Origin: Candidatus Falkowbacteria bacterium RIFCSPLOWO2_02_FULL_45_15
Lineage (GTDB): Bacteria > Patescibacteriota > Patescibacteriia > Patescibacteriales > XYC2-FULL-47-12
Length of the DNA stretch: 33,517 bases
Direction: 5' to 3'
Assembly (NCBI GenBank): GCA_001777995.1
Contig: MFFV01000027.1
Span: 26,419-59,935 of the forward strand
This document shows positions 1,678 to 33,451 of the stretch, piece by piece. Every line of letters begins with the position of its first letter. Position 1 is the stretch's first letter. Both the position numbers and the translations under genes were made by a program. The notes below the pieces were generated by a model, which was not told the DNA's origin, made no database searches, and saw only the letters and a list, made by a program, of their open reading frames with translations.

Positions 1678-1680
1678 TTT

Positions 1681-7021: not shown

Positions 7022-7023
7022 TT

Positions 7024-12846: not shown

Positions 12847-13267
12847 TTTTTATATATTTTAGAAAATGCTGATAATCACGGATATAATCGCTTTCCCGAT
12901 AATAATCACTGGCAACTACCAAAATGACGCAATCCGATGAAAATTTTTTCATCACCCGCCAAACTGCCGCTCTTAAATAAACACCGGTGTAGGGGTCATT
13001 CATTAAAATTTTTTGTTTTGTCTGCCCATCGTCCAAGTGCAGTTCAAACGAACCGTTGATGCACAAAATTATCTGCTGTAATTTCTTATGGGCGTGCAAA
13101 CCGCGAATGGCTTTTTTATTGAATAAACTATTAATAAAATAAAAACGCTTAATGGGAAACGGCACGCTCTTTTTTTCTTCGCCGATCACTAAATTACCGT
13201 CGGGAAAGTCATTAAAAAATTGCAGCTTGATGATGCTGGCATTTTTTACTTTTATTTTTTTAACCAT
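12839..13267 (-). CDS. FdtA/QdtA/WxcM-type NDP-4-keto-6-deoxyhexose 3,4-ketoisomerase (cupin)
   Basis: 142-aa ORF. FPIKRFYFI...IRGLHAHKKLQQIILCINGSFELHLDDG...GVYLRAAVW matches the FdtA/WxcM cupin pattern, with the His pair in RG.HAHK. Size is typical for this family. Confidence 0.8.
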   Translation of the reverse strand: MVKKIKVKNASIIKLQFFNDFPDGNLVIGEEKKSVPFPIKRFYFINSLFNKKAIRGLHAHKKLQQIILCINGSFELHLDDGQTKQKILMNDPYTGVYLRAAVWRVMKKFSSDCVILVVASDYYRESDYIRDYQHFLKYIKND

Positions 13268-17134: not shown

Positions 17135-18250
17135 TTATTTGCTTATAAAATCTATGATGCGCCGCGCGCGCTTTTGCCACGTATACTGCGTGACGTCGCG
17201 ACGCGCTTGTTGCGACACGCTGATAGCTCTTTGGCCATCATCCAAAACTTCTTTCAAGCCATTGGCTAACTCCCGCGCGTCATTAGGTTTTACCAACCAG
17301 GCATTTTTTTTATTTAAAATTTCCCTCAACGAAGGAAGATTAGAGGCGACAATCGGCCGGCCGGATGCCATATATTCAAATAATTTTAAGGGCGAGGTGT
17401 ACTTTTCCGAATGGGCTTCGCCGGACGTGTTTGGCAATACTAAAATATCGGCCGCTTGCAGATAATCAGGGATTTCCTGATAAGGTCTTCGGCCAATAAA
17501 TATTATATTCGTTGCCTTAGCTTTTTGCTTTAACGGCTCTATTTCAGAATTGGTGCCGCCAACTAAAACTATTTTTACGTCTGGGGATAGGTAGCTCGCG
17601 GCCGCTAACAATACATCCACCCCTTTCCAGCCATATAGATAAAGACTGCCGGCATACATAACTATTTTTTTATCAAGCGGTAAACGCAATTTTTTTCTAA
17701 CTTCATTGACCTTAACGCTTGGCGAAAATTGTTCTAAATCAACTCCGTCCGGAGCTACCATTATTTTAGTTTTAATTTTATTCTCTTCTAAAATAGTTTT
17801 CATTATATCGGTTAATACTATCAGCCTGGCGGCTTTTTGCCAGATGTTAATATGAAAATTTTTTAGGCGTTGCGGGATGACATGGAGCTCTAGAATAAAA
17901 TTTTTAAAAAAAAATCCGGCTAAAGTCTCGCGCGTATATATAATATCGTATTGCTTAAATAATAAATAAAATTTAGCCGAAATAAAAAAACTGAATTTTT
18001 CCAGCAAAAAAATAAATTTGCCGGCTCCCAGCGGCATTAAATCAACGCACGGCAATCTGGTAATTTTAAATTTTTGCCGCACGTTGTAGTAGGCAAAAGG
18101 ATCTTTTTTTATTTTATTAAAACGACGAGGCACTACCAACTCCACCGCTAAACCGGTTTTGGCAAAAGCCTCGCACATCTTCATTATTTGGATACCATGC
18201 GCCCAGTCGGTAGGCAGTCGAGTATTGGATAGATACATTAACTTCATCAT
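17135..18250 (-). CDS. GT4-family (GT-B fold, Glycos_transf_1) glycosyltransferase
   Basis: 371-aa ORF with the C-terminal EX7E-type region GEAHSEKYTSPLKLFEYMASGRPIVASN and VMYAGSLYLYGWKGVDVLL. Its start overlaps the upstream stop (ATGA). Confidence 0.85.
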   Translation of the reverse strand: MMKLMYLSNTRLPTDWAHGIQIMKMCEAFAKTGLAVELVVPRRFNKIKKDPFAYYNVRQKFKITRLPCVDLMPLGAGKFIFLLEKFSFFISAKFYLLFKQYDIIYTRETLAGFFFKNFILELHVIPQRLKNFHINIWQKAARLIVLTDIMKTILEENKIKTKIMVAPDGVDLEQFSPSVKVNEVRKKLRLPLDKKIVMYAGSLYLYGWKGVDVLLAAASYLSPDVKIVLVGGTNSEIEPLKQKAKATNIIFIGRRPYQEIPDYLQAADILVLPNTSGEAHSEKYTSPLKLFEYMASGRPIVASNLPSLREILNKKNAWLVKPNDARELANGLKEVLDDGQRAISVSQQARRDVTQYTWQKRARRIIDFISK

Positions 18251-18972
18251 TGCTTATTTTTTTGAGCAAAATTAAAAATATTGCTGTCAATTTTTTGTTG
18301 TATTAATTCCGGTATTTTATCCGGCAAAAAAATGTTAACTCCCTTATCTTGTAAAATTTTAAAAAATTTATCTTCTATTTTGCGTCCAAACTCCCGCTCT
18401 TTGTCAAAATAGCGACCGCCAAGCGCTTGAGTAAATTTAGGGTCTTCGTTTAACTGCGGATCATGCTTTTCAGAGCCGTCTATCCGTTCTTGCAAGGTAA
18501 CAATGCTGCTGCCGGAACAAATATCATCAACATATAACTGCACTTCCTGTAAAAACATCCATTTCTTCTTAAACCACTCCGGGAAAAAATCAAAAGTTAG
18601 AGCCTTCATTTGCTCTTCATCGGGGTTAACGGCTTTTAAAAATTGTTCAGCTTTTGCCCTTTCTTCTTTGTTAAAATCATTAGGAAACTTTTCCAACCGC
18701 TTAGCCCAATCATGGCAAGCCGCGACCTTCATCATCTTTTCTTTATCCTCTTCAGGGATGCCTAGCAGATCGCTAAAAGCATCGGCGGCGGCAATTTCAG
18801 TAAGACAATGCTCAACCACATTGCGCCAGCTATCTCTTCCCCACAATTTTCCGCCACGAAATAAAAGACGCATTTCTGGCAAATAGCTAAACGCTAAATG
18901 CTCAAAATATTTTCTCTTATTTTCTGGAAAAATTTCAAAATTACTAGCATTGGCTATTATTTCTTGAATCAT
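18247..18972 (-). CDS. HD-domain superfamily protein (metal-dependent phosphohydrolase-like), function unknown
   Basis: H...HD...D spacing is seen in VVEHCLTEI, AACHDWAKR and YVDDI. I chose the ATG at 18972-18970 (MIQEII...), 1 nt after the upstream TAA. The ORF-track start at 19122 would overlap the TylF-like gene by 149 nt. Confidence 0.5.
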   Translation of the reverse strand: MIQEIIANASNFEIFPENKRKYFEHLAFSYLPEMRLLFRGGKLWGRDSWRNVVEHCLTEIAAADAFSDLLGIPEEDKEKMMKVAACHDWAKRLEKFPNDFNKEERAKAEQFLKAVNPDEEQMKALTFDFFPEWFKKKWMFLQEVQLYVDDICSGSSIVTLQERIDGSEKHDPQLNEDPKFTQALGGRYFDKEREFGRKIEDKFFKILQDKGVNIFLPDKIPELIQQKIDSNIFNFAQKNKQ

Positions 18973-18973
18973 A

Positions 18974-19714
18974 TTAATTCTTATGCATAATAAATGAATT
19001 GCCTTTCCAATTAAATTTTTGGTATTCGGTTTCTCTAAGCTGCGGATTCCTTGCCAGCCATTCCGCAAAAGCTTTTTGTTCGCCTTTCGCTGGATCGCCC
19101 TTAAAACAGAACCAATCGTCAAAAATTAAAATAGTGCCGTCCTCAACATAATCAGTAATAAAATTTAAAACCGACACGGCCGAATCATAAAGGTCGGAGT
19201 CAATAAAAATAATTGCGGCTGATTTTATGCCTAAGCTTTGCTTAGTCTCATTGTTTAAAATTTTATCGTACCATCCTTTTGTGGTTATTACTTTATTTAA
19301 ATCAACTCCTCTGCCAGCAATGATTTTTTTAAACTCGTCCTCGCTGCATGAGTACTGGCCTTTAGTAAATTCTCCGGTTGCCTTATCTTCAGCGCTCGTT
19401 ATCTCCGGCAAGCCGGCAAAAGAATCAAAGGCATAAAATTTCATGCCTTTAAGCCGGTTGCTGTTTTTACTAATCCATTTCCAAATGTTAAAGGCCCGGG
19501 CAAAAGAACGGCCCTTCCAAACGCCAAATTCCAAATAGTCTCCTGCTAAGTTTGCGTGCGCTGCAAACTCCAGCGCATTTTTTAGCATAATTTCGTCTGG
19601 ATGGGCATTAATGACATCAGAAAAAATAAGTTTATTTCGCACCCAAGGATGGTTCAAAAATAACTTTAACGGAGTGGTGATAATGGCGCCCACTTTTATT
19701 AAGATGGTTTTCAT
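18974..19714 (-). CDS. TylF/MycF-family (macrocin O-methyltransferase-like) SAM-dependent sugar O-methyltransferase
   Basis: 246-aa ORF with GDYLEFGVWKGRSF, FYAFDSFAGLPE, TKGWYDKIL and AAIIFIDSDLYDSAVSVLNFI..DGTILIFDDW, matching the TylF family pattern including the metal-binding D.D..Y.S region. ATGA overlap with the upstream gene. Confidence 0.8.
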   Translation of the reverse strand: MKTILIKVGAIITTPLKLFLNHPWVRNKLIFSDVINAHPDEIMLKNALEFAAHANLAGDYLEFGVWKGRSFARAFNIWKWISKNSNRLKGMKFYAFDSFAGLPEITSAEDKATGEFTKGQYSCSEDEFKKIIAGRGVDLNKVITTKGWYDKILNNETKQSLGIKSAAIIFIDSDLYDSAVSVLNFITDYVEDGTILIFDDWFCFKGDPAKGEQKAFAEWLARNPQLRETEYQKFNWKGNSFIMHKN

Positions 19715-20805
19715 AGCGCTCCCTTTACTTTTTTTATAATATAGCCCTGCTGCTCCATTGTCAGGGCGGGGTAAAGCGGCAAAGTAATAGTTGAAAAACC
19801 AAGTTTTTCGGCAATGGGAAAATCGCCTCTCTGATAATTAAATTGCTTGCGGTAATACGGTTCCAAATGGATGGGGTCGTAATGAATTGAGGTGTCAATG
19901 CCGGCTTTAGCTAAAAATTTTCTGATTTTATCTCTTTTTTTAGGATCAATCCAAACCACAAACATGTGGCAGGCGTGCTTCGTGCGAGGCGCAATTTTAG
20001 GAAAATCAACTCCCATCCCACTGAAGGCTTTAGCATATCTTTGAAACAATAAATTTCTTTTTTGGTGCTGTTGCTCTATTCTTTTCAACTGACTAAGCAG
20101 CATCGCGGCTTGAAACTCGGTAGCATCGTATTTATAACCAAGCTCGAACATATGCCTCTTTCCATTGACATTACGCACGCCGTCTCTTCGCAATAACTCG
20201 GCCCTTTGAGCGTAACCGCCATTACTCGTTACTAAAGCGCCCCCCTGCCCCGAGGTAATGTTTTTTGCCACATGAAAGCTCAAAGCGGCGCTGAAACTTA
20301 ATTGCCCCGGGCGAACGCCATCTCTTTGCGCCTCAATGGCATGGGCGGCATCTTCAATAATAATTAAATTATGTTTAGTCGCTATTTTTTTTAACTTCTT
20401 CATATCAACCATCTGCCCGTAAAGATGCACCGGTAAAATAATCTTGGTTTTCTTAGTTATTTTTGCCGCAACTTTATTTAAATCTAATAAGCCGGTTTCG
20501 GCGTTAACATCAACAAAAACCGGAACTGCCCGCTGGTATAAAATAACGTTACTGGTAGCTACATAAGAGAGAGGCGTGGTAATCACCTCATCCCCCTCTT
20601 GCACTCCGGCCATAATTAACGACAAATGCAAAGCGGCGGTGGCGCTGCTGGTCATTACCGCGTGTTTTATTTGCAGGTAGCGAGCTAATTTACTTTCAAA
20701 TTCTTCGGTTACTTTTCCGGGCGCAAACCAACCCGACCGAATAATTTTATTCATGACCTTGATGTCTTGATTGGTTATGGCTGGTTTTAAAAAGCCTATT
20801 TTCAT
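19711..20805 (-). CDS. DegT-family nucleotide-sugar aminotransferase (ArnB/PseC/PglE-like)
   Basis: 364-aa ORF with VMTSSATAALHLSLIMAGVQEGDEVITTPLSYVATSN, IIEDAAHA and PLP-lysine motif LSFHVAKNITSGQGG. Confidence 0.9.
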   Translation of the reverse strand: MKIGFLKPAITNQDIKVMNKIIRSGWFAPGKVTEEFESKLARYLQIKHAVMTSSATAALHLSLIMAGVQEGDEVITTPLSYVATSNVILYQRAVPVFVDVNAETGLLDLNKVAAKITKKTKIILPVHLYGQMVDMKKLKKIATKHNLIIIEDAAHAIEAQRDGVRPGQLSFSAALSFHVAKNITSGQGGALVTSNGGYAQRAELLRRDGVRNVNGKRHMFELGYKYDATEFQAAMLLSQLKRIEQQHQKRNLLFQRYAKAFSGMGVDFPKIAPRTKHACHMFVVWIDPKKRDKIRKFLAKAGIDTSIHYDPIHLEPYYRKQFNYQRGDFPIAEKLGFSTITLPLYPALTMEQQGYIIKKVKGAL

Positions 20806-22160: not shown

Positions 22161-23912
22161 TCAATTATTAAATAAATTTTTATCCCCTGCCCGGCAATCA
22201 AACAAATAACCGTTTATTTTCTTACTCTGCGTTTGAAAAACAGTTCCACAGCTCTGCAAATACTTCCAGAATATAGAGTATTTATTAATTTCCGGAAAAT
22301 CAACTACGGTATAATATCCTTGATACTGTTGCATTTTTCGGCGGCTGGAATCCTCAAATAGCGGCTGAGTATAAAAACGTCCCCCGTGTTTGCCAGCCCT
22401 GTCTAGTTCATAGGTGCCAGTATCATTGTAAGTGGTGACTTTTCCTACATCATTATTATTAACTACCTCCTCAAATAAACTATTAGCAACTTTATCCGGG
22501 GAACCATATAACCAGCCGTAAGCCAATTCAGCGTTAAAGAATACACAATATATCAAGGCGGCTGTGAAAAACACGCTATTGGCTATAATTTTAAACTTAG
22601 CTGACTTATAGATGTCCCAAAAAACCATCGCTACTAAGGAAGTGAGCCAAAATAAAACAATAAACTTAACCGACATATAAAATCCTAACGGGCCGGAACC
22701 GCTGGAAAACGGCAACAGAAAACTAAAATCTAAATTTTTTATCTGTTCAAGGTAAGCGATTTTGGGCACGAGTGGCAGGATCTTATTATAAGATAAAGCC
22801 AGCCACGCCCCGAGCGGTAATAAAACTATGCCGCTGGCTATTAAATTTTTTGTTATGAAAGAACGCCCAGCTGAATTCTTTGCTTCATTAAACCAATGCG
22901 CTAACACATCTCCACCGATAAACACTAACGGTAAAATCAAAAACATCATGTAGCGGTCAATGGTGCGGTTGCTGAAATCAAACAGCACCAAATAAAAAAA
23001 CAACCCGGATATAATATACCATGCCCAAAATTCGTGCCGCCGCCCAAAATTTTTTAAGTTTAACAGCAACAACAAAAAAGGAGACAAAAGCAGTATGGCT
23101 TTGGTGACTAAAAATAAAACTTGGAAATAATTGCGGCTCGAAAAATTAAACCAGGAAAAATTTCTGGTATACTCCAAAAATCTGACCGGTGAAAGCGGCG
23201 GGTACAGCCAATGCAGTAGTAATAAAATTATGGTTAATGCGGCCAGTACGGCCAAACTGACATAAAACACCCGCGCGAACAAACGGCGGTTAATAGCTGC
23301 TTGGTAACGGTGTAAATAATAAAAAAATAATCCCGGCGCTATCAGAATAAAACTGATTTTTGATAGCAGCCCGCCCAAAATGGCTATACTAAAAATTATC
23401 AGCCAGCGGCGATTAGCAACGCTCTGATTAAAATTTGGCCAATCAATTTTAGCAAAACTCCAAAGCGTCAACAAAATCCAAAACGGCAAAATGGCGCCGT
23501 CAATATCAATCTGGATGGAGGCAATTACGCTGTAAGGAGCTATGGCAAATAACAATAGTGAGCATAAAGCTGCCTTGGGGCCATAGTGTTCGCGCGCGAT
23601 TGCAAAGATCAGCCAAAAGCAGGCGGCGGCGAACAACAATATCAGCCAGCGCAGATGATCATAACCAAACAACTCGCCAAAGTAATAGAAGGTGATCTCC
23701 GTTAGGGGCGGATGCACGCTTTCTCCCTGTAAACTAAAAACCGGATTAACTATGCGCGCCCATTTATGTTCATCCTGATGATAAATAAAATCAAGCAGCG
23801 GCAATCGGAATAGTAAAAATAAAACAAACAAGCCCAAGACGATGCTTATTTCTTTTTTGCCACTATTAACAAAGAAACTCCGAACGGATAAGAAATAATT
23901 TTTAATAGCCAT
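22161..23912 (-). CDS. GT-C fold glycosyltransferase, PMT_2 / ArnT-like (GT39/GT83-type)
   Basis: 583-aa ORF. The first periplasmic loop HQDEHKWA...VHPPLTEI, followed by LRWLILLF...IAREHYGPKAALCSLLLFAIAPYSVIASIQIDIDG, follows the ArnT/PMT_2 pattern (DE...hPPL...R...P....s....D). More than 10 hydrophobic helices and a polar C-terminal domain. The ATG start overlaps the upstream methyltransferase gene by 67 nt; a TTG at 23837 would remove the overlap. Confidence 0.8.
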   Translation of the reverse strand: MAIKNYFLSVRSFFVNSGKKEISIVLGLFVLFLLFRLPLLDFIYHQDEHKWARIVNPVFSLQGESVHPPLTEITFYYFGELFGYDHLRWLILLFAAACFWLIFAIAREHYGPKAALCSLLLFAIAPYSVIASIQIDIDGAILPFWILLTLWSFAKIDWPNFNQSVANRRWLIIFSIAILGGLLSKISFILIAPGLFFYYLHRYQAAINRRLFARVFYVSLAVLAALTIILLLLHWLYPPLSPVRFLEYTRNFSWFNFSSRNYFQVLFLVTKAILLLSPFLLLLLNLKNFGRRHEFWAWYIISGLFFYLVLFDFSNRTIDRYMMFLILPLVFIGGDVLAHWFNEAKNSAGRSFITKNLIASGIVLLPLGAWLALSYNKILPLVPKIAYLEQIKNLDFSFLLPFSSGSGPLGFYMSVKFIVLFWLTSLVAMVFWDIYKSAKFKIIANSVFFTAALIYCVFFNAELAYGWLYGSPDKVANSLFEEVVNNNDVGKVTTYNDTGTYELDRAGKHGGRFYTQPLFEDSSRRKMQQYQGYYTVVDFPEINKYSIFWKYLQSCGTVFQTQSKKINGYLFDCRAGDKNLFNN

Positions 23913-24577
23913 ATTTCCAATAAAAATATATTTTTGAGGACATAATTTATTAACTTATTGTTAATGTCAAAATCGGAACGACGGCGCAGCGGCATTATTT
24001 TAGCGGCCTGCCGTACTAAATAAATTAGCGGGAAAAGAAAAAAATTAAAGTAACCCACGCGCTCTATGCTAAAGCCGGCTGCTTGTATTTTAACTAATAA
24101 TTCCTTTTTTGTATACCGGCGAAAGTGATGGGAAATTTCGTCCTGCAGACCCCATAAAAACATAAAAGCGGGGACCGTAACGATGGCAATTCCGCCCGGT
24201 TTTAAAACTCTGCCTATTTCCCTGATAGCCAGTTTATCGTCCCGAATATGCTCCAAAGTATCAAGGCACAGCACGGCGTCAAATTGTCCATTTGGATAAT
24301 GTAACTGGGGCAAGACGCATACTGATAGCCCCCTTCTGCCCTGATTTTGCCCGTAACTGACGGCTTCCGCCGATATGTCGCAGCCGGCAGCGTCATATCC
24401 TGCCGCCTGCAGCTGCGCCACCAAAAAGCCGCTGTTGCAGCCGACATCAAGTATCACCGCTTTTTTGCCAGAGCCGTAATATTTTTTTAATAGCTGCCAG
24501 ATAAGCAATCGCCGGCCGACAAACCACCAATGTCTTTCTTCTACTTCTTGATAGGTTGTATGCAAAATTTCGTCCAT
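23846..24577 (-). CDS. Class I SAM-dependent methyltransferase (Methyltransf_23/11-like)
   Basis: 243-aa ORF with HWWFVGRR at the N-terminus, SAM motif ILDVGCNSGFL, GCDIS, FDAVLCLDTLEHI and LKPGGIAIV. Confidence 0.8.
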   Translation of the reverse strand: MDEILHTTYQEVEERHWWFVGRRLLIWQLLKKYYGSGKKAVILDVGCNSGFLVAQLQAAGYDAAGCDISAEAVSYGQNQGRRGLSVCVLPQLHYPNGQFDAVLCLDTLEHIRDDKLAIREIGRVLKPGGIAIVTVPAFMFLWGLQDEISHHFRRYTKKELLVKIQAAGFSIERVGYFNFFLFPLIYLVRQAAKIMPLRRRSDFDINNKLINYVLKNIFLLEIWLLKIISYPFGVSLLIVAKKK

Positions 24578-24597
24578 AGCTAAATATTGTCATTCTG

Positions 24598-24627
24598 GTT
24601 AGACTGGGTTTTAAAACCCAGTCTAAC
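24598..24627. repeat. 30-bp perfect palindrome (potential 13-bp stem / UUAA loop hairpin or dimeric protein binding site)
   Basis: GTTAGACTGGGTTTT|AAAACCCAGTCTAAC read directly from the sequence. It lies in the 84-bp gap between two minus-strand methyltransferase genes, 20 nt upstream of the ATG at 24577. No T-run follows on either strand. Confidence 0.9.
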
Positions 24628-24661
24628 TCAAGTCTATACAAGTAGCTCTACCTATTGCTGG

Positions 24662-25489
24662 CTACTTAACGCGTCCCCCGAATTTCCAGGAATTGCCGTT
24701 ACGACTAATAATGTAAACGCTGTCTTGATCTACGCGCCGGTTATTTTTAAGCCAACTCTCAATAGTTTCGCGGCTTAAATAAGTTGTCTGCGGCGTTATG
24801 AGTTGGTCAAAGGCAACATGGCGAAAAAAAGAAAATTCGCGCTTGGCTATCCAAAGGCAGTATTGATAAAGCGGCAACCTGCGCAGCCAAGTTAAGCGCG
24901 GCAGATAAAATAACAGCTTAGCGTATAAAAAAAATGGCACCGCCAGTGGTGTAGCTATTCCGTATTTTATCATCCACCAAGGCAGGCAACGGGACACTAT
25001 TTTGCGCAATGGGTCAACTAAACATATAATCACGCCGTTGCCTTCGCGCGCGTAAACCCAAATATGGAATTGGCCGCCCGGCTTAACATTACGAATAACG
25101 GCGGCAAATCCCGCCCGCGGCTCTTGCAAATGATGCAGCACGCCAATACAGTATACCACGTCAAAGCCATCACTTTGCCATTCAACCAAATCGGCTTTGA
25201 TGATTTGCCAATGCTTGAACGGCAAAGCCGCCAGATTTTTTTTGGCCGCCGCCACTGAATCGCCCAAGTCAACGCCGACCAACAGTGACGGCTGCCAATT
25301 AGCCATGTGCGTAAGCAAGCTGCCGTTGCCGCAGCCTAACTCTAACACTTTTTTTCCTTGAGCGTCATCTTTAGTTAAAGGCGTGAGCCAGTCAATAAAT
25401 TGCTCATGAGTATAAATTGATCCCGCCGGCAGATTATTCCATGATTGGGCAAAAGCGGCGGCGGTTGATTGGTCAGTGGTGAAGGTCAT
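24662..25489 (-). CDS. Class I SAM-dependent methyltransferase with hydrophobic C-terminal extension
   Basis: 275-aa ORF with SAM motif VLELGCGNGSL, GVDLG, FDVVYCIGVLHHL and VKPGGQFHIWVY, then a hydrophobic stretch GIATPLAVPFFLYAKLLFYL. Confidence 0.8.
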   Translation of the reverse strand: MTFTTDQSTAAAFAQSWNNLPAGSIYTHEQFIDWLTPLTKDDAQGKKVLELGCGNGSLLTHMANWQPSLLVGVDLGDSVAAAKKNLAALPFKHWQIIKADLVEWQSDGFDVVYCIGVLHHLQEPRAGFAAVIRNVKPGGQFHIWVYAREGNGVIICLVDPLRKIVSRCLPWWMIKYGIATPLAVPFFLYAKLLFYLPRLTWLRRLPLYQYCLWIAKREFSFFRHVAFDQLITPQTTYLSRETIESWLKNNRRVDQDSVYIISRNGNSWKFGGRVK

Positions 25490-25492: not shown

Positions 25493-26071
25493 TTACTTAA
25501 CGCAAATAAAATTAAATTCTACTTCATCAAAGCCTCCCACCCAATAGCACCAAATTCGGCTGCAAAATCCTTGATTCAAGTTAGCTAGAAAAGAAATTAT
25601 TGCATTAATCATCCGCAGAATAAAAATGCTGATTTTCCCGTAGCCCAAATATGGTAAGAGGTGAAAAAAGGCGAGCCAGTGCAAACGCATTTTGGCTAAT
25701 TTAAACTCCACGCCGTAAAAGCCGGAGCGAGTGAATTGCCGATTAAAATAAAGCGGAAAAGTAACGTCAAAACCGTGCGCGTGCTCGGCGTGCGTAAAGC
25801 CGCGGCTGAAATGCGGCACTTTAATTAACAATTTGCCGCCGGGCTTTAAAATACGATGCAATTCCTTCATTACGGCGAATGGCTTGTCTAAATGTTCTAA
25901 AATGTGCGAGGCCTCAATCAAATCAAAGGTATTATCCGCGAACGGGTAAGGAAATTTGTTTAAATCATGTCTGACGTCCGGCTCTGTCAGCGACTGCCAA
26001 TCTAAATTAACATAGCCGGCTTTTTTTTCTTCGCCGCAGCCTAAGTTTAATTTGGTTAAATTATTATCCAT
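25493..26071 (-). CDS. Class I SAM-dependent methyltransferase (Methyltransf_11-like) with hydrophobic C-terminal segment
   Basis: 192-aa ORF with LNLGCGEEKKAGYVNLD, FDLIEASHILEHL and LKPGGKLLIKVPH, then LAFFHLLPYLGYGKISIFILRMINAIISFL. 3-bp gap to the downstream gene. Confidence 0.8.
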   Translation of the reverse strand: MDNNLTKLNLGCGEEKKAGYVNLDWQSLTEPDVRHDLNKFPYPFADNTFDLIEASHILEHLDKPFAVMKELHRILKPGGKLLIKVPHFSRGFTHAEHAHGFDVTFPLYFNRQFTRSGFYGVEFKLAKMRLHWLAFFHLLPYLGYGKISIFILRMINAIISFLANLNQGFCSRIWCYWVGGFDEVEFNFICVK

Positions 26072-26078: not shown

Positions 26079-27965
26079 TTATTTTAACCACCTTTTCTGC
26101 CACAACTGAAAACAAAGTAATGTCCAAAGCGGCTTTCTATTATCCGCCCGGCGCTCAATATGGTCTTTGACTAATTTAGAAACAAAAACGGAATTAAACA
26201 AACCTTGTCGCCGTAGATAACCTTCCGATAATAATTCATCCAGCAGCGGCCGCAAATCTGCCGTTAGCCATTGCGCCAGCGGAATGCCAAAACCTTTTTT
26301 TGGACGGCGCACAATTTGGGGCGGCAATTTATCTTGCATTAATTTCTTTAAAATAAACTTGGTCGTCAGCCCCCTGATTTTCAAATTAAGCGGCAGGCTA
26401 TTAACAAGATCAACAACTTGAAAATCCAAAAAAGGCGCCCGCACCTCCAGCGCGTTGCCCATGCTCGCGCGGTCAACTTTTACCAGTATATCATCCATTA
26501 GATATGTTCTCAAATAAGCATAAATCAACTTATTCCAGTCGGGCTGCTGCCTGACGTTTGCCTCATAAGCATCCAGCTCTTCGTATTCGTTAACTGCTTG
26601 CAGTTCGCGCCAAACTTCGGGGGCGAAAAGCTGCGCGCGTTGCTCGCGGCTAAAAGAGCCAAGCCAACTTGCGTGGCGCCGCAGGATGTTTTTTTCTCCG
26701 TCACCGGCAATAAATTTTTTTAGTTTAAAATCAAAACTGATATTTTTAAAAGAAACAGGCCAATTGAGCGCAATTGCTTCAATTATTTTCTGCCTGATAA
26801 ATATGGGAATTTTTTCGTAAATTGCCGCGAATTTTTCAGCCGGAAAAGTATCATAGCCGCAAAATAATTCGTCGCCGCCGTCCCCGCCCAAAGCTACCGT
26901 TACTCTTTCTTTGGTAAATTCAGACAATAAATAGGTCGGCAGTATTGAAGCGTCCCCGAGCGGCTCATCCAATAAATCAGCGATGCGCGGGATTAAATCC
27001 AAAGAATCTTTAGCGCTTAATATTTTTTCATAATGCTCGGTGCCTAAATGTTTGGCGGCTAAGCGGGCGTATTTTGATTCGTCAAAGCTGTCTTCTTTAA
27101 AGCCGATAGAAAAAGTTTTTATTGGCTTGACGCTGTTTTGTTGCGCGTAGTAAGCAATGGCTGAACTGTCAATGCCGCCGCTTAAAAAAATTCCTAACGG
27201 CACGTCGCTCACTAATCTTGTTCTAACTGCTTCATTTAGCCGCTTATCTAATTCATTAATGACTTCTTCAATTCGTAATTCGTAATTCGTAATTCGTAAT
27301 TCAAAAATTATGTCCCAAAATTTTGTTTTAACAACTTTTCGACCGTCATAAGATAAATAATGCCCCGGCTCTAATTTATAAATGCCTTTGAAAATTGAGT
27401 GCGGCGTCGGCACATACTCATAAAGCAAGTATTTATTTAATGATTCTAAGTTAATCTCCCGCCGGCAATCAGGATGTTGCAGTAATGCCTTTAACTCCGA
27501 GCCAAAAATTAAAGTAGTGCCAAAAATTCCCCAATACAGCGGCTTTTTGCCTAAGCGGTCGCGCGCTAAAATAAGCTTATCTTGGCGCGCATCATATAAA
27601 GCGATAGCGAACATGCCGTTTAATTTTTTGAATGCCTCAACGCCAATGGCAGCGTATAAATTAATAATGACTTCGGTGTCGGAATTACCCCTGAATTTAT
27701 ATCCTTGGTTAACAAGTTCCAGTCTTAATTCCTGAAAATTATAAATTTCGCCGTTAAAAACCAGCCAGATGTCTTGGCTGTCGTTAGTCATGGGCTGATG
27801 CCCGGCGGGAGATAAATCAATAATAGCGAGCCGCCGGTGCCCCAAACCGATTGGGCCGTCTAAATAAAAACCTTCGTCATCGGGTCCGCGATGGCGAAGC
27901 GCGTTTGTCATCTTTGCTAAAATTTCCTGATTGCCACTACCAAAATAACCGGCGATGCCGCACAT
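26079..27965 (-). CDS. asnB: Asparagine synthase (glutamine-hydrolysing) family amidotransferase; in this context probably a glycan or precursor amidotransferase
   Basis: 628-aa ORF. Ntn nucleophile MCGIAGYFG, glutaminase-domain motifs HRGPDD, HRRLAIIDL, VFNGEIYN and DTEV, and synthetase-domain PP-loop GIFLSGGIDSS. It contains the 7-bp tandem repeat at the domain junction. Confidence 0.9.
   Translation of the reverse strand: MCGIAGYFGSGNQEILAKMTNALRHRGPDDEGFYLDGPIGLGHRRLAIIDLSPAGHQPMTNDSQDIWLVFNGEIYNFQELRLELVNQGYKFRGNSDTEVIINLYAAIGVEAFKKLNGMFAIALYDARQDKLILARDRLGKKPLYWGIFGTTLIFGSELKALLQHPDCRREINLESLNKYLLYEYVPTPHSIFKGIYKLEPGHYLSYDGRKVVKTKFWDIIFELRITNYELRIEEVINELDKRLNEAVRTRLVSDVPLGIFLSGGIDSSAIAYYAQQNSVKPIKTFSIGFKEDSFDESKYARLAAKHLGTEHYEKILSAKDSLDLIPRIADLLDEPLGDASILPTYLLSEFTKERVTVALGGDGGDELFCGYDTFPAEKFAAIYEKIPIFIRQKIIEAIALNWPVSFKNISFDFKLKKFIAGDGEKNILRRHASWLGSFSREQRAQLFAPEVWRELQAVNEYEELDAYEANVRQQPDWNKLIYAYLRTYLMDDILVKVDRASMGNALEVRAPFLDFQVVDLVNSLPLNLKIRGLTTKFILKKLMQDKLPPQIVRRPKKGFGIPLAQWLTADLRPLLDELLSEGYLRRQGLFNSVFVSKLVKDHIERRADNRKPLWTLLCFQLWQKRWLK
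27270..27302. repeat. Heptanucleotide tandem repeat, (AATTCGT)x4.7 on the plus strand, inside the asnB-family CDS
   Basis: Read directly: aattcgt aattcgt aattcgt aattcgt aattc. On the coding strand it encodes ELRITNYELRI (three units = 21 nt = 7 aa), at about residues 222-233 between the glutaminase and synthetase domains. Confidence 0.95.
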
Positions 27966-27974: not shown

Positions 27975-29660
27975 TTAATTAACTTTATATATTTCCACAA
28001 ACGGCCCTGTTTTTTCAACCTGCCGCAAGTCAGCGTAAGGATGAAGCATGTTGTTGGCGATGTCGGCTGCGTCTGCCGGCGCCGGTAAAGGATAGTATGC
28101 CTGCAGTAAATTCATGTTCAGCACGGCTGCGTTGCGCCTAAAAACTGCGCGCTCCTCATTATTCCAAAAAGAAATAACGGCGTACTGAAAATCCGGCAAA
28201 ATATCTTTAAAACTATCGATGCCGCCGAACCCTTGCGCCGTGACAACAAAATAGCGCGGCTGGGGCAAATCTATCTGGTCAGCGGCAATGATAAACCGCC
28301 GCTCGACCGTGTCTTTTTTAGGGCTCAAACCCTTAAGATAGAGCGCTGCCGCTTTATTTTCCGGCAAATCAAGATAAGGGTTGCCTGATAGTATCACCGT
28401 ATCAGCGGGAACATTATTAAAAATCCATTGCCGCGCCAAGAGCAAAGTATTCGGCTTAAGTATATTTTTTGTCCATACTAGCGGCAGATACATTATTATC
28501 ACTATCACCACTAAATACCATAATAAACGTTGCCATGATTTTGCCAATCTATCCGCCAGCCAAACTAGGAAATAACTCACTGGCAAAATCAAAAAAGGAA
28601 TGGTCGCAATGATAAAGCGCGGCTCCGAATGGATTGAATAGGAAATAGAAATCACCCACGCCAAAATGAAAGCGATAAAACCAAGGCAAAGCGCTGGGTA
28701 TTTTTTATAAAATAAAATTAAAGCTGGCATGGCTGCTACCGCTAACAAGGCGTCATAATTAAATAATACTTTGCCGTAAAAAGCGATGTTGCTCCATAGG
28801 GTCCAGTCGCGGTTTACGCTTTCAATGCCGGGTTGCTGGAGATAAATAAGAAATCCGGTGGGGTTAAGATAATACCAAAACCCAAGCCAAACTACCAGAT
28901 AAAATTGTAAATAAATAAACTGGCGATACCTACTCCACCACCCCCTACCAAAGCTTATAAAATCCCTCAAATTATATTTATAAAAATATAAAATTAAAAA
29001 AACTAAGTAAATTAAAGCGCTCGCTAAATGTACCCCCAGCGCCAGAGCGGTGACTAGGCTGATAAAAAAATAGTCCTTCGCTTGGGGTTTATCTTTGGTG
29101 AAAAAAACATAATAAACATAGACGGCTGTCAATAACAACAAAATCTGCAAAGCCCAGGCGCGGGCAAAATGCGTTACCTGAAAAAACATTAAATTAAAAG
29201 AGAGTAAAAAACTCGCCAGTATGGCTACTTTTTTATTTACAAAAATGCGGTTCGCTAATTTGTACATTAGGTAACCGGCCGCCGTGGCGAATAAAGCGGT
29301 AATAAGCCGCGCGAACGGCAAAAAGTAGCCGTAATCCAAAATCACAAATTTTTTTAATTCCGTAAAATCAGCGAATAACCCGGAAAACTTCAAAAACAAA
29401 ACCAGCGCGGCGTAAAACGGCAACTGCGCGTAAGCGGTTACCGGCAGATGATAAAACGATTGGTAATTGGGACGCAAACTTTGGTCGTTCATCATTTTAA
29501 AAATCGCACCCATGGTCGTTACTTCGTCGCCAACGGTATTTTTAAGGGGGAAGCTATAAAATAGACCAGGAAGATGCAACAAAAATGCAATTGCCAATAT
29601 AGCAATCAAAGCCGTATGATAATTTATGTATTTAGCAACGTATTGACGAATAGCAAACAT
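27975..29660 (-). CDS. GT-C fold glycosyltransferase, PMT_2 / ArnT-like
   Basis: First loop NTVGDEVTTMGAIFKM...YHLPV, then ARLITALFATAAGYLMYKLANRIF..KKVAILASFLLSFNLMFFQVTHFARAW, follows the ArnT/PMT_2 pattern. More than 10 hydrophobic helices and a polar C-terminal domain ending FVEIYKV. I chose the ATG at 29660 (MFAIRQY), 4 nt after the upstream stop. The ORF-track start at 29717 would overlap the GT2 gene by 53 nt. Confidence 0.75.
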   Translation of the reverse strand: MFAIRQYVAKYINYHTALIAILAIAFLLHLPGLFYSFPLKNTVGDEVTTMGAIFKMMNDQSLRPNYQSFYHLPVTAYAQLPFYAALVLFLKFSGLFADFTELKKFVILDYGYFLPFARLITALFATAAGYLMYKLANRIFVNKKVAILASFLLSFNLMFFQVTHFARAWALQILLLLTAVYVYYVFFTKDKPQAKDYFFISLVTALALGVHLASALIYLVFLILYFYKYNLRDFISFGRGWWSRYRQFIYLQFYLVVWLGFWYYLNPTGFLIYLQQPGIESVNRDWTLWSNIAFYGKVLFNYDALLAVAAMPALILFYKKYPALCLGFIAFILAWVISISYSIHSEPRFIIATIPFLILPVSYFLVWLADRLAKSWQRLLWYLVVIVIIMYLPLVWTKNILKPNTLLLARQWIFNNVPADTVILSGNPYLDLPENKAAALYLKGLSPKKDTVERRFIIAADQIDLPQPRYFVVTAQGFGGIDSFKDILPDFQYAVISFWNNEERAVFRRNAAVLNMNLLQAYYPLPAPADAADIANNMLHPYADLRQVEKTGPFVEIYKVN

Positions 29661-29664
29661 TATT

Positions 29665-30660
29665 CTAAAAATTAATTTTAGCTTTAATTTGATATGGCTT
29701 TTTATCCTGCGCTTCATAGTACACGCGCATAATCATTTCGGCGATAATACCTAAAACAACTAACTGAATGCCAATAATGAGCAAAAGCGCGGAAAATGTC
29801 GGCAGAGGCGTCGCTACCAAATCGCGGATATGAAAGAGTTTAAGCGCGACTGAAGCGATGCCGGCAACTAGACCGAGAAAAAAAGAGATGAAGCCAATAC
29901 CGCCAAAAAAATGCATCGGGCGATTAATATACTTTGATAAAAAAATAATCACGACTAAATCTAACAGCACTTTAAAGGTGCGCGATATCCCGTAGTGTGT
30001 TTGTCCGCTGCCGCGCGGGCGATGGTTAACCACAATTTCTTCTACTCTGCCGCCGTGCCAAGCCGCGTACGCCGCGATAAAACGATGCATTTCGCCATAT
30101 AAGCTAACTCCCTGGATTACGCCCCGGCGATACGCTTTCATAGTACAACCGTAATCGTGGATTTTAACGCCAGTAATAAGACCGATTAACCAGTTAGCGA
30201 TTTTAGAAGGAATGACGCGGGAAAATAATTTATCCCGGCGATGCTTGCGCCAACCGGAAACTACGCTCGCTCCCGCCGCAATTTTTTCTAAAAAATGAGA
30301 GATGTCGCGCGAGTCATTTTGTCCATCGGCATCCATGGGTATAATGACCGCACCCTGGGCGGCGCTGATTCCCGCCGACAGTGCCGCGGTTTGGCCAAAA
30401 TTATGCTTAAAAACAATCACTTTGAACGACGGGTCAAACGATGATAATTTCTTTAAAATTTCAAGGCTGCTGTCTTGAGAACCGTCTTCAACACAAATTA
30501 TTTCGTAGCTTTTTCCTAACGCATTTAAAACATCTTTAGTCTCTTGGTATAATAAGTTAATATTTTCAGCTTCATTATGTATCGGCAAGATAATGGAAAT
30601 ATCTATCGCGCTGTCGGTTTGTTCATCTGCAAGATAATTTTTGGATGATAATTTATCCAT
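29665..30660 (-). CDS. Membrane-anchored GT2, GtrB/ArnC/DPM1-type polyprenyl-phosphate sugar synthase
   Basis: 331-aa ORF with ISIILPIHNEAENI, VEDGSQDSS and MDADGQNDSRDI. Two C-terminal transmembrane helices end in the family-typical GIIAEMIMRVYYE. Its ATG lies inside the upstream YdjC stop region (ATGGATAA, 8-nt overlap). Confidence 0.85.
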   Translation of the reverse strand: MDKLSSKNYLADEQTDSAIDISIILPIHNEAENINLLYQETKDVLNALGKSYEIICVEDGSQDSSLEILKKLSSFDPSFKVIVFKHNFGQTAALSAGISAAQGAVIIPMDADGQNDSRDISHFLEKIAAGASVVSGWRKHRRDKLFSRVIPSKIANWLIGLITGVKIHDYGCTMKAYRRGVIQGVSLYGEMHRFIAAYAAWHGGRVEEIVVNHRPRGSGQTHYGISRTFKVLLDLVVIIFLSKYINRPMHFFGGIGFISFFLGLVAGIASVALKLFHIRDLVATPLPTFSALLLIIGIQLVVLGIIAEMIMRVYYEAQDKKPYQIKAKINF

Positions 30661-31423
30661 GGTGGTGATTTTTTAATAGCTCAAACTCTTGCTGCCAATG
30701 ATAATTGCCCCAATGTTGGTATTTTTTTCTTAATGCTTCGTCCTCAATGCCCGGATGGCATCCCAGTTCAACCGTTGCGTTAGGATATTGGTTAGCGATA
30801 TGATTGGCATATTCTAGGTAGCTTTTATCTAAATTGCCAGCGTTCACAACGCCTACGAAAAAATCGTTAATTTGCAGGCCGGCTGTTTTTATTTTAATTT
30901 TAGCCGACCTTGACAGCCAGCGCAGAAACAATAGTTGAAACTTTCTAAATAACTTACCGCCCCCAAAATTAATCGGTTCGTTCACGGTTCGAATATAGGC
31001 GATGTTATATTCTTGGGCAAGCTTAATGACAATATTTGTAATACTTGGCAGTAAATGTAAATGTTGATGGCTATTAATAAATTGGGGCTTAATTCCACTA
31101 GCAATAATTTTATCTAACTGGACCCTTGCTTCTTGTTCTATCTCCATCAACTTGATTAATCCTAATATATACTTAATAACAAATAATTTATAATTGCCGG
31201 GCAACTTTACGCCGCTTAGAGATTTTTCTTCCACCCAAACTAAATGCGCTCCGATATTTAAATTGCTGACTGCTCCGGATTTTATTTTGGAAACCGCGTC
31301 GTCAAAAGCAGCGCCGTTAGCCATTAAAGCTGCTCCGTTAATTTTACCTGCTGTTAATAAATAGATAATCCCGTCGTTAACGCAAGTAGCAAGACCAAAG
31401 TCATCAGCAATTATTTTTAACAT
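30653..31423 (-). CDS. YdjC-family carbohydrate de-N-acetylase-like protein (ChbG/HpnK family)
   Basis: The N-terminus MLKIIADDFGLATCVNDGIIYLLTAGKINGAALMANG matches the YdjC family signature (ADDFG...N.gI......G.....s.M.n); later HLVW and INSHQHLHLLP (His cluster). I chose the ATG at 31423, the typical family start. The ORF-track start at 31486 overlaps the upstream GT2 gene by 50 nt. Confidence 0.8.
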   Translation of the reverse strand: MLKIIADDFGLATCVNDGIIYLLTAGKINGAALMANGAAFDDAVSKIKSGAVSNLNIGAHLVWVEEKSLSGVKLPGNYKLFVIKYILGLIKLMEIEQEARVQLDKIIASGIKPQFINSHQHLHLLPSITNIVIKLAQEYNIAYIRTVNEPINFGGGKLFRKFQLLFLRWLSRSAKIKIKTAGLQINDFFVGVVNAGNLDKSYLEYANHIANQYPNATVELGCHPGIEDEALRKKYQHWGNYHWQQEFELLKNHHHG

Positions 31424-31436
31424 ACCATTGACGATT

Positions 31437-32423
31437 TTAAAAGTTGTGTATGCCGTAGAGGCTGCGCTCTGCCTGCCCTCGTTCAATATTCATAGTCTCG
31501 GATATTATATATAAAGGGCGGCCTTTGATTTCATAAAACATTTTATAGAGATATTCTCCGATTACGCCCAGAACTATTAATTGAATGCTGCCTAAAAATA
31601 AAACTAATACCACCAGTGTCGCCCAGCCGGCAATGAGCGGGTTGGGGCGAGTATAATGGTCCCAAATTACATAAGCTGCAAAAAAGATGCTGGCCACTAA
31701 AACCAACAACCCCGCCCAAAAAGCGAGCCGCAACGGGGCGGCAGAAAAAGAGGTTACCCCGCTCAAAACTAAGCTGGTTAACCTTTTGAAAGTATATTTT
31801 GCTTCGCCGGCTTGCCTGGCTTGCACCGCGTAGGGAATATAATATTTCTTAAAACCGACCCATTGCACTATCCCCCTTAAAAATCTTTCTTTTTCCGGCA
31901 ATTGCTTTAAAACGGCGACCACCTGCCGGTTATATAAAGCAAAGTCGGAAGAATTTTTAAATTGCAGGCCGGACATGGCGCTTAACGCCCGATAGATTGT
32001 CTTACCGATTATCTCCCGCAACCAAGAATTCTGCTGGTTTGACGTCCGCTCGCCGATCACGATGTCGAAGCCGGCTTGGGCGTGTTTAATAAATTCAGGA
32101 ATTAAGGACGGCGGGTGCTGCAAATCTCCATCCATGGTGACGACCACCTCTCCTTGGGCAAAATCAATCCCGGCGTTAAAAGCCGCCTGATGGCCAAAGT
32201 TTCTGGAAAACTTTAAAACTTTAAAGCGGCTGTCTCTGGCGGCCGCTTCTTTTAATAATAACGGCGTCCGGTCGTTAGAGCCATCGTCAACCAAAATAAT
32301 TTCGTAGCTTTGCCCTAAGGAGTCGCAAACCGCGCCCAACTCCGGCAATAATTTAGGCACGACTTCTTCTTCGTTGAAAAGAGGAATAACTATTGATAAA
32401 TATGGATTGCTTATTTCGTTCAT
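31437..32423 (-). CDS. Membrane-anchored GT2, ArnC/GtrB-type polyprenyl-phosphate (amino)sugar transferase
   Basis: 328-aa ORF with LSIVIPLFNEEEVV, LVDDGSNDRT, NFGHQAAFNAG and MDGDLQHPPSLIP. Two C-terminal TM helices carry GVIGEYLYKMFYEIKGRPLYII, a very typical ArnC/GtrB ending. Confidence 0.9.
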   Translation of the reverse strand: MNEISNPYLSIVIPLFNEEEVVPKLLPELGAVCDSLGQSYEIILVDDGSNDRTPLLLKEAAARDSRFKVLKFSRNFGHQAAFNAGIDFAQGEVVVTMDGDLQHPPSLIPEFIKHAQAGFDIVIGERTSNQQNSWLREIIGKTIYRALSAMSGLQFKNSSDFALYNRQVVAVLKQLPEKERFLRGIVQWVGFKKYYIPYAVQARQAGEAKYTFKRLTSLVLSGVTSFSAAPLRLAFWAGLLVLVASIFFAAYVIWDHYTRPNPLIAGWATLVVLVLFLGSIQLIVLGVIGEYLYKMFYEIKGRPLYIISETMNIERGQAERSLYGIHNF

Positions 32424-32446
32424 TTGGTAATTGTTATAAATAAAAC

Positions 32447-33451
32447 TTATTGTCGTTTACTTTGTAAAGATGCTAAAGTTTTATCTAAACCTTCAGCTAA
32501 GCTGACTTGCGGCTCGTCTTTCAGCATTTTTTTCATAAAACTAACGTCCGGCGTGCGGTATTTTATTTCTCCTTTGTTTCTCGCGGGTTGAAATAATATT
32601 TTAACTTTGGGGAATTTTTTCTTTACTGCGTTAGCCAAATCAATTATCCGCATTGAGTGCCCGGAGCCGATATTCATCGGCCGGCCGTTCACTTTGTCGT
32701 TGCAGAATGATTTTAAAGTTAATCTGATATTATCATCGGCATAAACAAAATCTCTCGTCTGCCCCCCGTCGCCATAAATTAGTAAGGGTTTGCCAGCTAA
32801 GCCGTTGCGCAGAAATATGGAAACGACAAAGCCGGAATCGCCAAAATCCTGCCTCGGCCCGTAGACATTAAAAAACCGAACAATCGTTACCGGTATGCCG
32901 TAAGTTTCGTAATATGCCTGGAAATACTGTTCGCCTAATATTTTAACCAAACTATAAGGCCATCGGCCGTTAAAAGTATCGTCTTCCGCTATCGGCAATT
33001 TAACCGGCTCGCCGTAAACCTCCGAAGATGAGGTAAACAGTATTTTTTTAACTTGATATTGTTTTGAGCATCCGGCAATATTTTTAATCCCTTCTATATC
33101 CTCAAAGACCGCGAGCGGATTATTGGCCGTCCTCTTGACGCCTACCATCGCCGCGTAGTGCATCACGTAATCCGGCCGCTCTCGCTTAAAAACCGGCTTA
33201 AGCTGTTTAATATCATTAACATTTTTTTTATAAAATTTAAACTGGCGATTGCTTTTTAAATGAGTAATATTGGCTAATTTGCCGTTGGATAAATCGTCAA
33301 CGCAAATTACCGAGGCGCCTTGATTAACCAACGCATCGCACATATGAGAGCCTAAAAATCCGGCGCCGCCGGTAACTAAAAATTTTTTATTTAAAATTTT
33401 TAAAGACCCGTTGTTAAATGCGCCTTTATTTTTCTTTTTCTGCATAAACAT
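32447..33451 (-). CDS. Extended-SDR nucleotide-sugar epimerase/dehydratase/decarboxylase (UXS / GalE / ArnA-C-like)
   Basis: 334-aa ORF with LVTGGAGFLGSHMCDAL, VDDLSNGKLANI, SSSEVYGEP, YxxxK in PYSLVKILGE, RFFNVYGPR, YGDGGQTRDFVYADD and the C-terminal R.PD....L...P..L.EGL pattern. The exact reaction cannot be told from sequence. Confidence 0.85.
   Translation of the reverse strand: MFMQKKKNKGAFNNGSLKILNKKFLVTGGAGFLGSHMCDALVNQGASVICVDDLSNGKLANITHLKSNRQFKFYKKNVNDIKQLKPVFKRERPDYVMHYAAMVGVKRTANNPLAVFEDIEGIKNIAGCSKQYQVKKILFTSSSEVYGEPVKLPIAEDDTFNGRWPYSLVKILGEQYFQAYYETYGIPVTIVRFFNVYGPRQDFGDSGFVVSIFLRNGLAGKPLLIYGDGGQTRDFVYADDNIRLTLKSFCNDKVNGRPMNIGSGHSMRIIDLANAVKKKFPKVKILFQPARNKGEIKYRTPDVSFMKKMLKDEPQVSLAEGLDKTLASLQSKRQ

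Follow-up and report, generated by a model that had tools for sequence, protein, structure and literature searches.

The locus described here raises the question of how two membrane-anchored glycosyltransferases, a deacetylase and two glycosyltransferases of the GT-C type, all encoded in one run of genes, are divided between pathways. The window, a 33,517-nucleotide stretch of contig MFFV01000027.1 with ~42% GC, is one long glycan-biosynthesis locus. Its minus strand includes five consecutive genes for, in order of transcription, an extended short-chain dehydrogenase/reductase (SDR33), a family 2 glycosyltransferase (GT2-A), a metal-dependent de-N-acetylase of the YdjC family, a second GT2 (GT2-B) and a GT-C enzyme (GTC1), and these are followed by genes for an AsnB-type glutamine amidotransferase, three methyltransferases (MT1, MT2 and MT3) and a second GT-C (GTC2). 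A preliminary description of this DNA took the first five genes as a single pathway, similar to the Arn pathway of lipid A modification, in which the product of one or both GT2s is deacetylated by YdjC and then transferred by the adjacent GTC1. We favour, as having about an even chance of being correct, an arrangement in which two neighbouring and separable carrier-lipid modules are present instead of one Arn-like pathway, the first of them following a route of the NaxD/LgmC type. Module A would be formed by GT2-A, YdjC, usually SDR33, and GTC2 with MT3, and module B by GT2-B, GTC1, AsnB, MT1 and MT2.

The evidence that carries this reading comes from the linkage of the genes in other genomes. 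One genome per species was scanned with peptide patterns of the YdjC clade, which gave 23 species-level loci from Patescibacteria. Directly upstream of YdjC, all 23 have a GT2-A orthologue, and in 20 the YdjC cluster includes a GTC2 orthologue, on either side of the pair and often immediately adjacent to it. MT3 is present in 12 of these loci, and adjoins or overlaps GTC2 in 11. GT2-B and GTC1 were each found in only two, in both cases in the closest relatives, and in the other 21 loci GT2-A and YdjC occur without GT2-B or GTC1. Thus, the pairing of YdjC with the GT2 that precedes it, as proposed in the preliminary description, is constant, but GT2-B and GTC1 do not hold as its companions.

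The reverse situation was found in a second set of loci, made up of contigs carrying GTC1 homologues and scored within 9 kb. In three organisms (L036/37, L038/39 and L040/41), GT2-B, GTC1, AsnB and methyltransferases are present without YdjC or GT2-A within this distance. GT2-B always directly precedes the GTC1 orthologue, including in the loci that lack YdjC, and the order GT2-B, GTC1, AsnB is conserved in L007, L008 and L036-L042. Orthologues of MT1 follow AsnB in L036 and L040, those of MT2 are found in L036, L038, L040 and L042, and MT3 again adjoins or overlaps GTC2 in L036, L038 and L042. The full arrangement of the window is present in L042, which is a more distant relative. Judged by these linkages, the run is composed of three separable blocks, namely GT2-A with YdjC, MT3 with GTC2, and GT2-B with GTC1, AsnB, MT1 and MT2. 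In the lineage of the window the last of these sits between the other two.

The identity of the two GT-C enzymes points in the same direction. Families were assigned by Pfam scans of the 30 main open reading frames (ORFs) of the window and by NCBIfam profiles, with the NCBIfam equivalog cutoffs used for membership. Neither GTC1 nor GTC2 had a significant match in the PDB by sequence or by profile, and both proteins were classified through structure prediction and Foldseek. The AlphaFold2 model of GTC1, built with 15 homologues (predicted local distance difference test, pLDDT, of 86.5), retrieved GT-C enzymes alone, with STT3 (6.4e-7) and ArnT (3.5e-6) ahead of DPY19, AftA and Pmt4, and the residues G44-D45-E46, just after the first transmembrane helix (TM1), are invariant in the family. 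The sole Pfam match of GTC1 is a sub-threshold one to GT22 (23.6 vs 23.8 bits), and some of its homologues carry PMT or PMT_2 matches. GTC1 had been presented as an ArnT/PMT_2-like GT-C, of which the GT-C fold stands, but neither the PMT_2 match nor a specific likeness to ArnT does. PF13231 has no match in GTC1 and is above its cutoff in GTC2. The GTC2 model (pLDDT 91.2) has ArnT (5ezm) as best Foldseek match, at 5.2e-10 and a TM-score of 0.56, with the next match (~1e-4) about five orders of magnitude behind. In its clade H20-Q21-D22-E23 after TM1 is conserved, and D111-x-D113-G114 is invariant. By Pfam and predicted structure, the ArnT-like GT-C is GTC2 and not GTC1. Since GTC2 is ArnT-like and is linked to YdjC in 20 of the 23 loci, the GT-C encoded 6 kb downstream, rather than GTC1, would be the partner of the deacetylase pair. 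The GTC1 family showed no relationship by hhalign to GTC2, nor to three unannotated polytopic proteins of the window that are considered further below.

The YdjC protein matches PF04794 over residues 3-251 of 256 (159 bits vs a cutoff of 29.7), and the ATG at 31423 is a sensible start, giving the N-terminus typical of the family, MLKIIADDFG. No CE4 match was found in the window, which bears out the earlier view that a YdjC-fold deacylase stands here in the place of the CE4 protein ArnD. In ChbG of K. pneumoniae the residues D11, H61 and H125 bind the metal, and D10 and H206 are proposed as general base and acid. D7, D8, H60, H119 and H223 of the window YdjC align with ChbG D10, D11, H61, H125 and H206, respectively, and all five catalytic and metal-binding residues are therefore retained; their loss, which would have told against the preliminary description, is not seen. 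Among the members of the clade, H119 is sometimes replaced by Asn, and H121 and H123 are invariant. Neither a transmembrane helix nor a signal peptide is predicted in YdjC, which is thus expected to be cytoplasmic. The protein does not belong to the HpnK equivalog (105.5 bits vs 232.6), its best NCBIfam match, nor to ChbG (94.7 bits vs 227), and neither a hopanoid or HpnJ/HpnI-type context nor chb/phosphotransferase system (PTS) genes were found in the family scans of the window. By analogy with NaxD and LgmC, we propose that it converts a polyprenyl-phosphate-linked N-acetylhexosamine (HexNAc) to the corresponding free-amine hexosamine (HexN).

Both GT2s carry the membrane anchors ascribed to them earlier, in the form of C-terminal hydrophobic helices, with two transmembrane helices in GT2-A. 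Their full-length matches, which include the membrane region, are to GtrB (5ekp, 3.7e-72) and ArnC (2.8e-50) for GT2-A, and to ArnC (4.9e-44) and GtrB (1.3e-38) for GT2-B. Membership of the ArnC equivalog NF007986 was rejected for both (180.6 bits for GT2-A and 170.1 for GT2-B, vs 529), as was membership of PgfS for GT2-A (275.9 bits vs 500), although PgfS is its best NCBIfam match. For SDR33, every NCBIfam equivalog match is far below cutoff, and a role as ArnA was rejected (75 bits vs 777). Its best PDB match is a UDP-glucose 4-epimerase (4zrm, 7.5e-52), with UXS at ~1e-39. SDR33 is thus most similar to UDP-hexose 4-epimerases, and may supply GT2-A with its nucleotide sugar, for example UDP-N-acetylgalactosamine (UDP-GalNAc). 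An orthologue of SDR33 precedes GT2-A in L007, L008, L009 and L042, and a more distant one is found 4.4 kb upstream in L025.

From the identity and predicted fold of the gene products, the retained catalytic residues and the linkage conserved between genomes, we infer which sugar module A handles, that YdjC acts on it in lipid-linked form, that GTC2 is the partner enzyme and what the acceptor may be, as follows. GT2-A would move an N-acetylhexosamine from a UDP-sugar onto polyprenyl phosphate at the cytoplasmic face of the membrane, and the soluble, metal-dependent YdjC would then strip the N-acetyl group. The lipid-linked amino sugar would be flipped, possibly by the GtrA-domain protein that is encoded upstream in relatives, and GTC2 would pass the sugar, cationic by now, to an acceptor outside the cytoplasm, which might be a protein or a wall glycopolymer. 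The earlier mechanism survives in the order of its events, i.e. a GT2 forms the lipid-linked sugar, a cytoplasmic YdjC removes its N-acyl group and a GT-C then transfers it, but not as a single five-gene pathway ending in GTC1.

The nature of the acceptor depends on the host. The closest genome match to the window YdjC is a metagenome-assembled genome of Candidatus Falkowbacteria (93% identity), its named homologues are from Candidatus Yanofskybacteria, and the related loci are nearly all from Patescibacteria. The host is an ultra-small bacterium of the Candidate Phyla Radiation (CPR)/Patescibacteria, and the window belongs to an envelope-glycosylation operon whose densely packed genes extend over more than 30 kb. 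A genome-resolved study of Parcubacteria did not find lipid A or lipopolysaccharide (LPS) genes and described the envelope as still unclear in all CPR studied, and CPR genomes have been reported without lpxC and kdsA. As the host belongs to a group that lacks lipid A genes, an acceptor of the Arn type is very probably not available, and the analogy with lipid A Ara4N modification drawn in the preliminary description is not supported. In view of the taxonomy of the homologues and the lack of lpxC and kdsA in CPR, lipid A phosphate is very probably not the acceptor, which would then have to be something else. The likeness of GT2-A to PgfS and the epimerase-like character of SDR33 make it plausible that the donor carries a HexNAc and that the acceptor is a protein or a wall polymer.

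The combination of enzymes, which had been thought not to be described, is already established in Francisella (FlmF2/NaxD/FlmK) and in Bordetella (LgmA/C/B). According to a review, NaxD of Francisella and A. baumannii belongs to the YdjC superfamily, and converts undecaprenyl-phosphate-GalNAc to the galactosamine form before its transfer to lipid A. FlmF2 (FTN_0545) and FlmK (FTN_0546) are encoded by adjacent genes, and a second GT2, FlmF1, feeds FlmK too. In Bordetella, LgmA, LgmB and LgmC carry out the equivalent modification with glucosamine (GlcN). Module A shares the families and the logic of these systems, with an ArnC-like GT2 next to YdjC in all 23 loci and an ArnT-like GT-C in the cluster in 20 of them. 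Francisella naxD is the next gene after those of FlmF2 and FlmK. In contrast to these systems, the host of module A is a CPR bacterium of a group without lipid A genes, so that the acceptor would have to be another one, about half of the CPR loci have a methyltransferase gene closely coupled to that of the GT-C, and in the window a second GT2/GT-C module is interleaved. When plasmids and chromids were searched by tblastn for a proteobacterial NaxD/LgmC locus, only relatives annotated as ChbG/HpnK were retrieved, with <30% identity. At a locus of Azospirillum, the high GC content gave rise to spurious ORFs.

Other known systems share parts of this arrangement. As in the Arn pathway, a GT2 would load a carrier lipid, the N-acyl group would be removed from the lipid-linked sugar and a GT-C would take over, and both GT2s match ArnC over their full length and GTC2 has ArnT as its best match, but the deacylase of the window has the YdjC fold instead of the CE4 fold of ArnD, and lipid A is very probably missing. 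The preliminary description had also assigned an ArnB-like aminotransferase (19711-20805) and a formyltransferase (1-405) to Arn-type functions. A DegT aminotransferase and a C-terminal formyltransferase fragment are indeed there, but neither is specific to Arn, as the former matches ArnB, QdtB and perosamine synthetase with comparable scores, and the latter likewise GDP-perosamine N-formyltransferase and ArnA. Lying beside FdtA, a C-methyltransferase and a nucleotidyltransferase-SDR fusion, they look like part of an ordinary NDP-aminosugar synthesis. In the Pgf system of S. mutans, a bacterium with no outer membrane, PgfS and the GT-C PgfM1 were required in one study for the addition of GalNAc to extracytoplasmic Ser/Thr-rich protein regions via a lipid carrier, and their operon also contains the genes of the epimerase PgfE and of another GT-C, PgfM2. 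Like Pgf, the window combines the genes of a GT2, an epimerase-like SDR and two GT-Cs, and among named proteins PgfS is closest to GT2-A, but Pgf lacks a deacetylase, and its GT-Cs are of the YfhO type whereas those of the window are PMT_2-type or unclassified. GtrB/PgtC2 protein glycosylation is grouped here with Pgf among the closest known systems. Of the components of GtrA/GtrB/GtrC-type glycosylation, a GtrB-like GT2 and a GT-C are in the window, and a GtrA domain was seen upstream in L007, L008 and L042. HpnK and ChbG share with the window protein the YdjC fold and the catalytic residues, and HpnK is also encoded beside a GT2, but the scores against both are far below cutoff and hopanoid or chb/PTS genes were not detected in the window.

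The single pathway ending in GTC1, to which we give a rather low probability, has several points in its favour. All five minus-strand ORFs are present with the limits first given to them and are contiguous, and the stop/start overlap between YdjC and GT2-B (ATGGATAA) is real and spans 8 nt. The same gene order is found on six independently assembled contigs encoding an identical YdjC, out of 15 contigs that carry it, and the expected conservation in relatives was confirmed, as the five genes keep their order in L007, in L008 and in L042, a more distant relative, with YdjC identities spanning 57-93%. Moreover, GTC1 has the GT-C fold with ArnT among its matches, and Francisella provides a precedent for two carrier-lipid GT2s feeding one GT-C. 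However, each half of the run occurs without the other, as described above, and the ArnT-like GT-C is GTC2. In addition, the whole run is packed with overlaps, so that overlap by itself does not show which genes belong to one pathway. Promoter-like and terminator-like sites were not enriched in the run over shuffled sequence, giving no sign of internal transcription units, which is consistent with a single packed operon.

A second alternative is that YdjC acts on a different cytoplasm-facing substrate, which could be a polyprenyl-diphosphate-oligosaccharide assembled by the GT4 and GT2 enzymes of the locus, a nucleotide sugar or a free oligosaccharide. The window does encode several soluble GT4 and GT2 enzymes as well as NDP-sugar pathways, the characterised ChbG works on soluble chitobiose, the YdjC protein PapP is predicted within a Wzx-type polysaccharide cluster of Pseudomonas, and the window YdjC falls under every NCBIfam equivalog cutoff. 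Against this, the invariant neighbour of YdjC (23/23) is an anchored GT2 of the GtrB/ArnC type, and not a GT4 or a short GT2, chb/PTS genes did not appear in the window scans, and no initiating phosphoglycosyltransferase, Wzx or Wzy family match is present in the window. We consider this alternative unlikely. Most improbable of all is that the product of GT2-A and YdjC is a cationic aminoglycolipid that remains in the membrane as a terminal product and is not a GT-C donor, since, although pairs of a glycosyltransferase and a deacetylase are known (HpnI/HpnK for hopanoids, GpgS/GpgD or HexS/HexD for GlcN-lipids), HpnK is the best NCBIfam match of YdjC at 105 bits and three of the 23 loci have no nearby GTC2 orthologue, GT2-A is homologous over its full length to polyprenyl-phosphate transferases, the known systems use GT4 or monogalactosyldiacylglycerol (MGDG)-synthase glycosyltransferases with other deacetylase families, the HpnK score is far from 232.6 and comes with no HpnJ/HpnI-type context, and a GT-C orthologue is linked in the other 20 loci.

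Several points also weigh against the two-module arrangement that we favour. The 23 loci were found with patterns derived from the clade itself and are phylogenetically clustered, so that they are not independent samples, and their neighbourhoods were annotated with our own script, which takes the longest ORF and its best phmmer match with the window proteins as queries. YdjC is translationally coupled to GT2-B both in the window and in L042 (57-58% identical), and a functional link between YdjC and module B is possible. MT3-GTC2 stands beside module B without YdjC in L036 and L038, and GTC2 is thus not strictly dependent on a deacetylated donor. The best named relatives of YdjC, HpnK and ChbG, both score far below their family cutoffs, NaxD and LgmC were likened to it by family and gene context, and the biochemistry of module A is read from genes and models. 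The Parcubacteria genome of the study mentioned above lacks an isoprenoid pathway, which bears on where the carrier lipid would come from. GtrB itself carries glucose, and this bears on which sugar GT2-A would use.

A wider proposal, that a conserved CPR module of GT2-A, YdjC and an ArnT-like GT-C, often with a methyltransferase, places a free-amine hexosamine on an acceptor other than lipid A, for example a surface protein or a wall glycopolymer, is advanced more tentatively than the two-module arrangement itself. The cationic sugar of such a module could conceivably be N-methylated. MT3 as the N-methylase of the freed amine is unsupported, as MT3-GTC2 occurs without YdjC and the PDB matches of MT3 are to generic methyltransferases only. 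If the proposal is correct, the module would provide the first case of a NaxD-type cationic sugar attached to anything other than lipid A, as well as a defined chemical feature of the CPR envelope, and it would carry over to bacteria without lipid A a mechanism so far known just from the remodelling of lipid A in pathogens. No new enzymology is revealed; what is new is the CPR host, the probable target other than lipid A and the interleaving with a second carrier-lipid module. CPR bacteria live attached to hosts, so that surface charge and glycans are likely to matter to them, and a NaxD-like route, if conserved, would offer a testable handle on their surface chemistry. A literature search joining Patescibacteria and YdjC retrieved no papers.

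Module B is, to judge from its gene content, a second and independent GT2/GT-C pair, which has an AsnB-type amidotransferase as its constant companion. AsnB follows GTC1 in every locus examined (the window and L036-L042), with gaps of 1-38 nt, and scores 598 bits against TIGR03108, below the cutoff of 817 bits. Why an amidotransferase should be so consistently paired with a GT-C is not obvious, and we can only guess that AsnB amidates a carboxylated sugar.

Regarding the flippase, the 30 ORFs scanned gave no match to GtrA, nor to the EamA-type families of ArnE/F, which agrees with the earlier remark that none is present, as far as the window goes. In L007 (573-2219), L008 (583-2208) and the first gene of L042, a GtrA/DPMS domain (PF04138, ~80 bits; 80.7) is fused N-terminal to a GT4, and this fusion heads the same operon, on the same strand and ~5 kb upstream of SDR33, i.e. 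beyond the edge of the window. The lack of a flippase gene is thus probably an effect of the window edge. A flippase-type domain fused to a Leloir glycosyltransferase is an unusual architecture in itself. Of these relatives, L008 (CAYHIM010000008.1) is labelled as 'uncultured Gammaproteobacteria', a label that is probably wrong given its full ten-gene synteny with the window and 79% YdjC identity.

Table 1. Genes of the two proposed modules in the window, listed in order of transcription, with the main basis of each assignment.
Feature	Coordinates	Strand	Basis
SDR33, extended SDR	32447..33451	-	PF01370 2.7e-55
GT2-A, anchored polyprenyl-phosphate glycosyltransferase of GtrB/PgfS/ArnC type; putative first enzyme of module A	31437..32423	-	PF00535 2.4e-33
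YdjC-family metal-dependent de-N-acetylase	30653..31423	-	PF04794 2.8e-46, 159 bits
GT2-B, second anchored polyprenyl-phosphate glycosyltransferase, closer to ArnC; putative first enzyme of module B	29665..30660	-	PF00535 6.9e-30
GTC1, GT-C fold, small CPR-specific family; putative partner of GT2-B	27975..29660	-	predicted fold
AsnB-type glutamine amidotransferase, module B	26079..27965	-	PF00733 3.2e-99 + GATase domains
MT1, class I S-adenosylmethionine (SAM) methyltransferase, module B	25493..26071	-	PF08241 1.6e-11
MT2, class I SAM methyltransferase, module B	24662..25489	-	PF08242/PF13489
MT3, class I SAM methyltransferase with hydrophobic C-terminus, coupled to GTC2	23846..24577	-	PF08241 3.4e-19
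GTC2, ArnT-like PMT_2 GT-C	22161..23837	-	PF13231 35.8 bits vs 26.1-bit cutoff

The run has a single sizeable intergenic gap, of 84 nt (24578-24661), between MT2 and MT3, right where module B gives way to MT3-GTC2. It contains a perfect palindrome of 14+14 nt at 24599-24626 (TTAGACTGGGTTTT/AAAACCCAGTCTAA), and its predicted folding energy is -26.7 kcal/mol (z = -4.6 vs shuffles). In the close relative L007, whose YdjC is 93% identical, the same gap is just 2 nt.

Elsewhere in the window, the three polytopic proteins mentioned above (14602-16407 and 9658-11562 on the minus strand, 7772-9646 on the plus strand) have 601-634 amino acids and 8-9 predicted transmembrane helices, with no Pfam or NCBIfam match and no profile similarity to GTC1. 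Genes for short soluble GT2s flank the first of these (16430-17134 and 13870-14589), and another (7018-7752) precedes that at 7772-9646. An orthologue of the 601-residue protein follows YdjC in L015, and in L024 a short GT2 precedes one. The three proteins may therefore represent further, undescribed pairs of a GT2 and a membrane transferase.

The window also holds nucleotide-sugar genes. An ORF of 621 residues (2931-4796, plus strand) has a nucleotidyltransferase (PF00483) fused to an extended SDR (GDP_Man_Dehyd/Epimerase), which would combine sugar activation and dehydration in one polypeptide. The regions 1-2793 (plus strand) and 11761-13267 (minus strand) encode the formyltransferase fragment, a C-methyltransferase (PF08421/PF08484), three DegT aminotransferases and an FdtA 3,4-ketoisomerase, which suggest N-formylated and/or C-methylated 3-amino-3,6-dideoxyhexoses, unusual for a CPR surface. 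A further ORF of 291 residues (18247-19122, minus strand) has no Pfam match, and its long form overlaps the gene of a TylF-type methyltransferase (18974-19714) by 149 nt.

Sphingomonas makes glycosphingolipids instead of LPS. On a plasmid of Sphingomonas parapaucimobilis (L044, 3335-6792), a gene annotated as GT87 is divergent from genes for a GT-A and a deacetylase of the ChbG/HpnK family; in a Pfam scan the GT-A gene showed its GT2 domain and the GT87-annotated protein had no match. The three-part logic of transferase, deacetylase and membrane enzyme may thus recur there with a different membrane transferase family. Outside the CPR, YdjC also directly follows a GT2 in L029 (Thermoanaerobaculia, a short soluble GT2) and in L035 (Pirellulales, a multidomain GT2 of 863 residues), and the GT2-YdjC pairing appears to be widespread.

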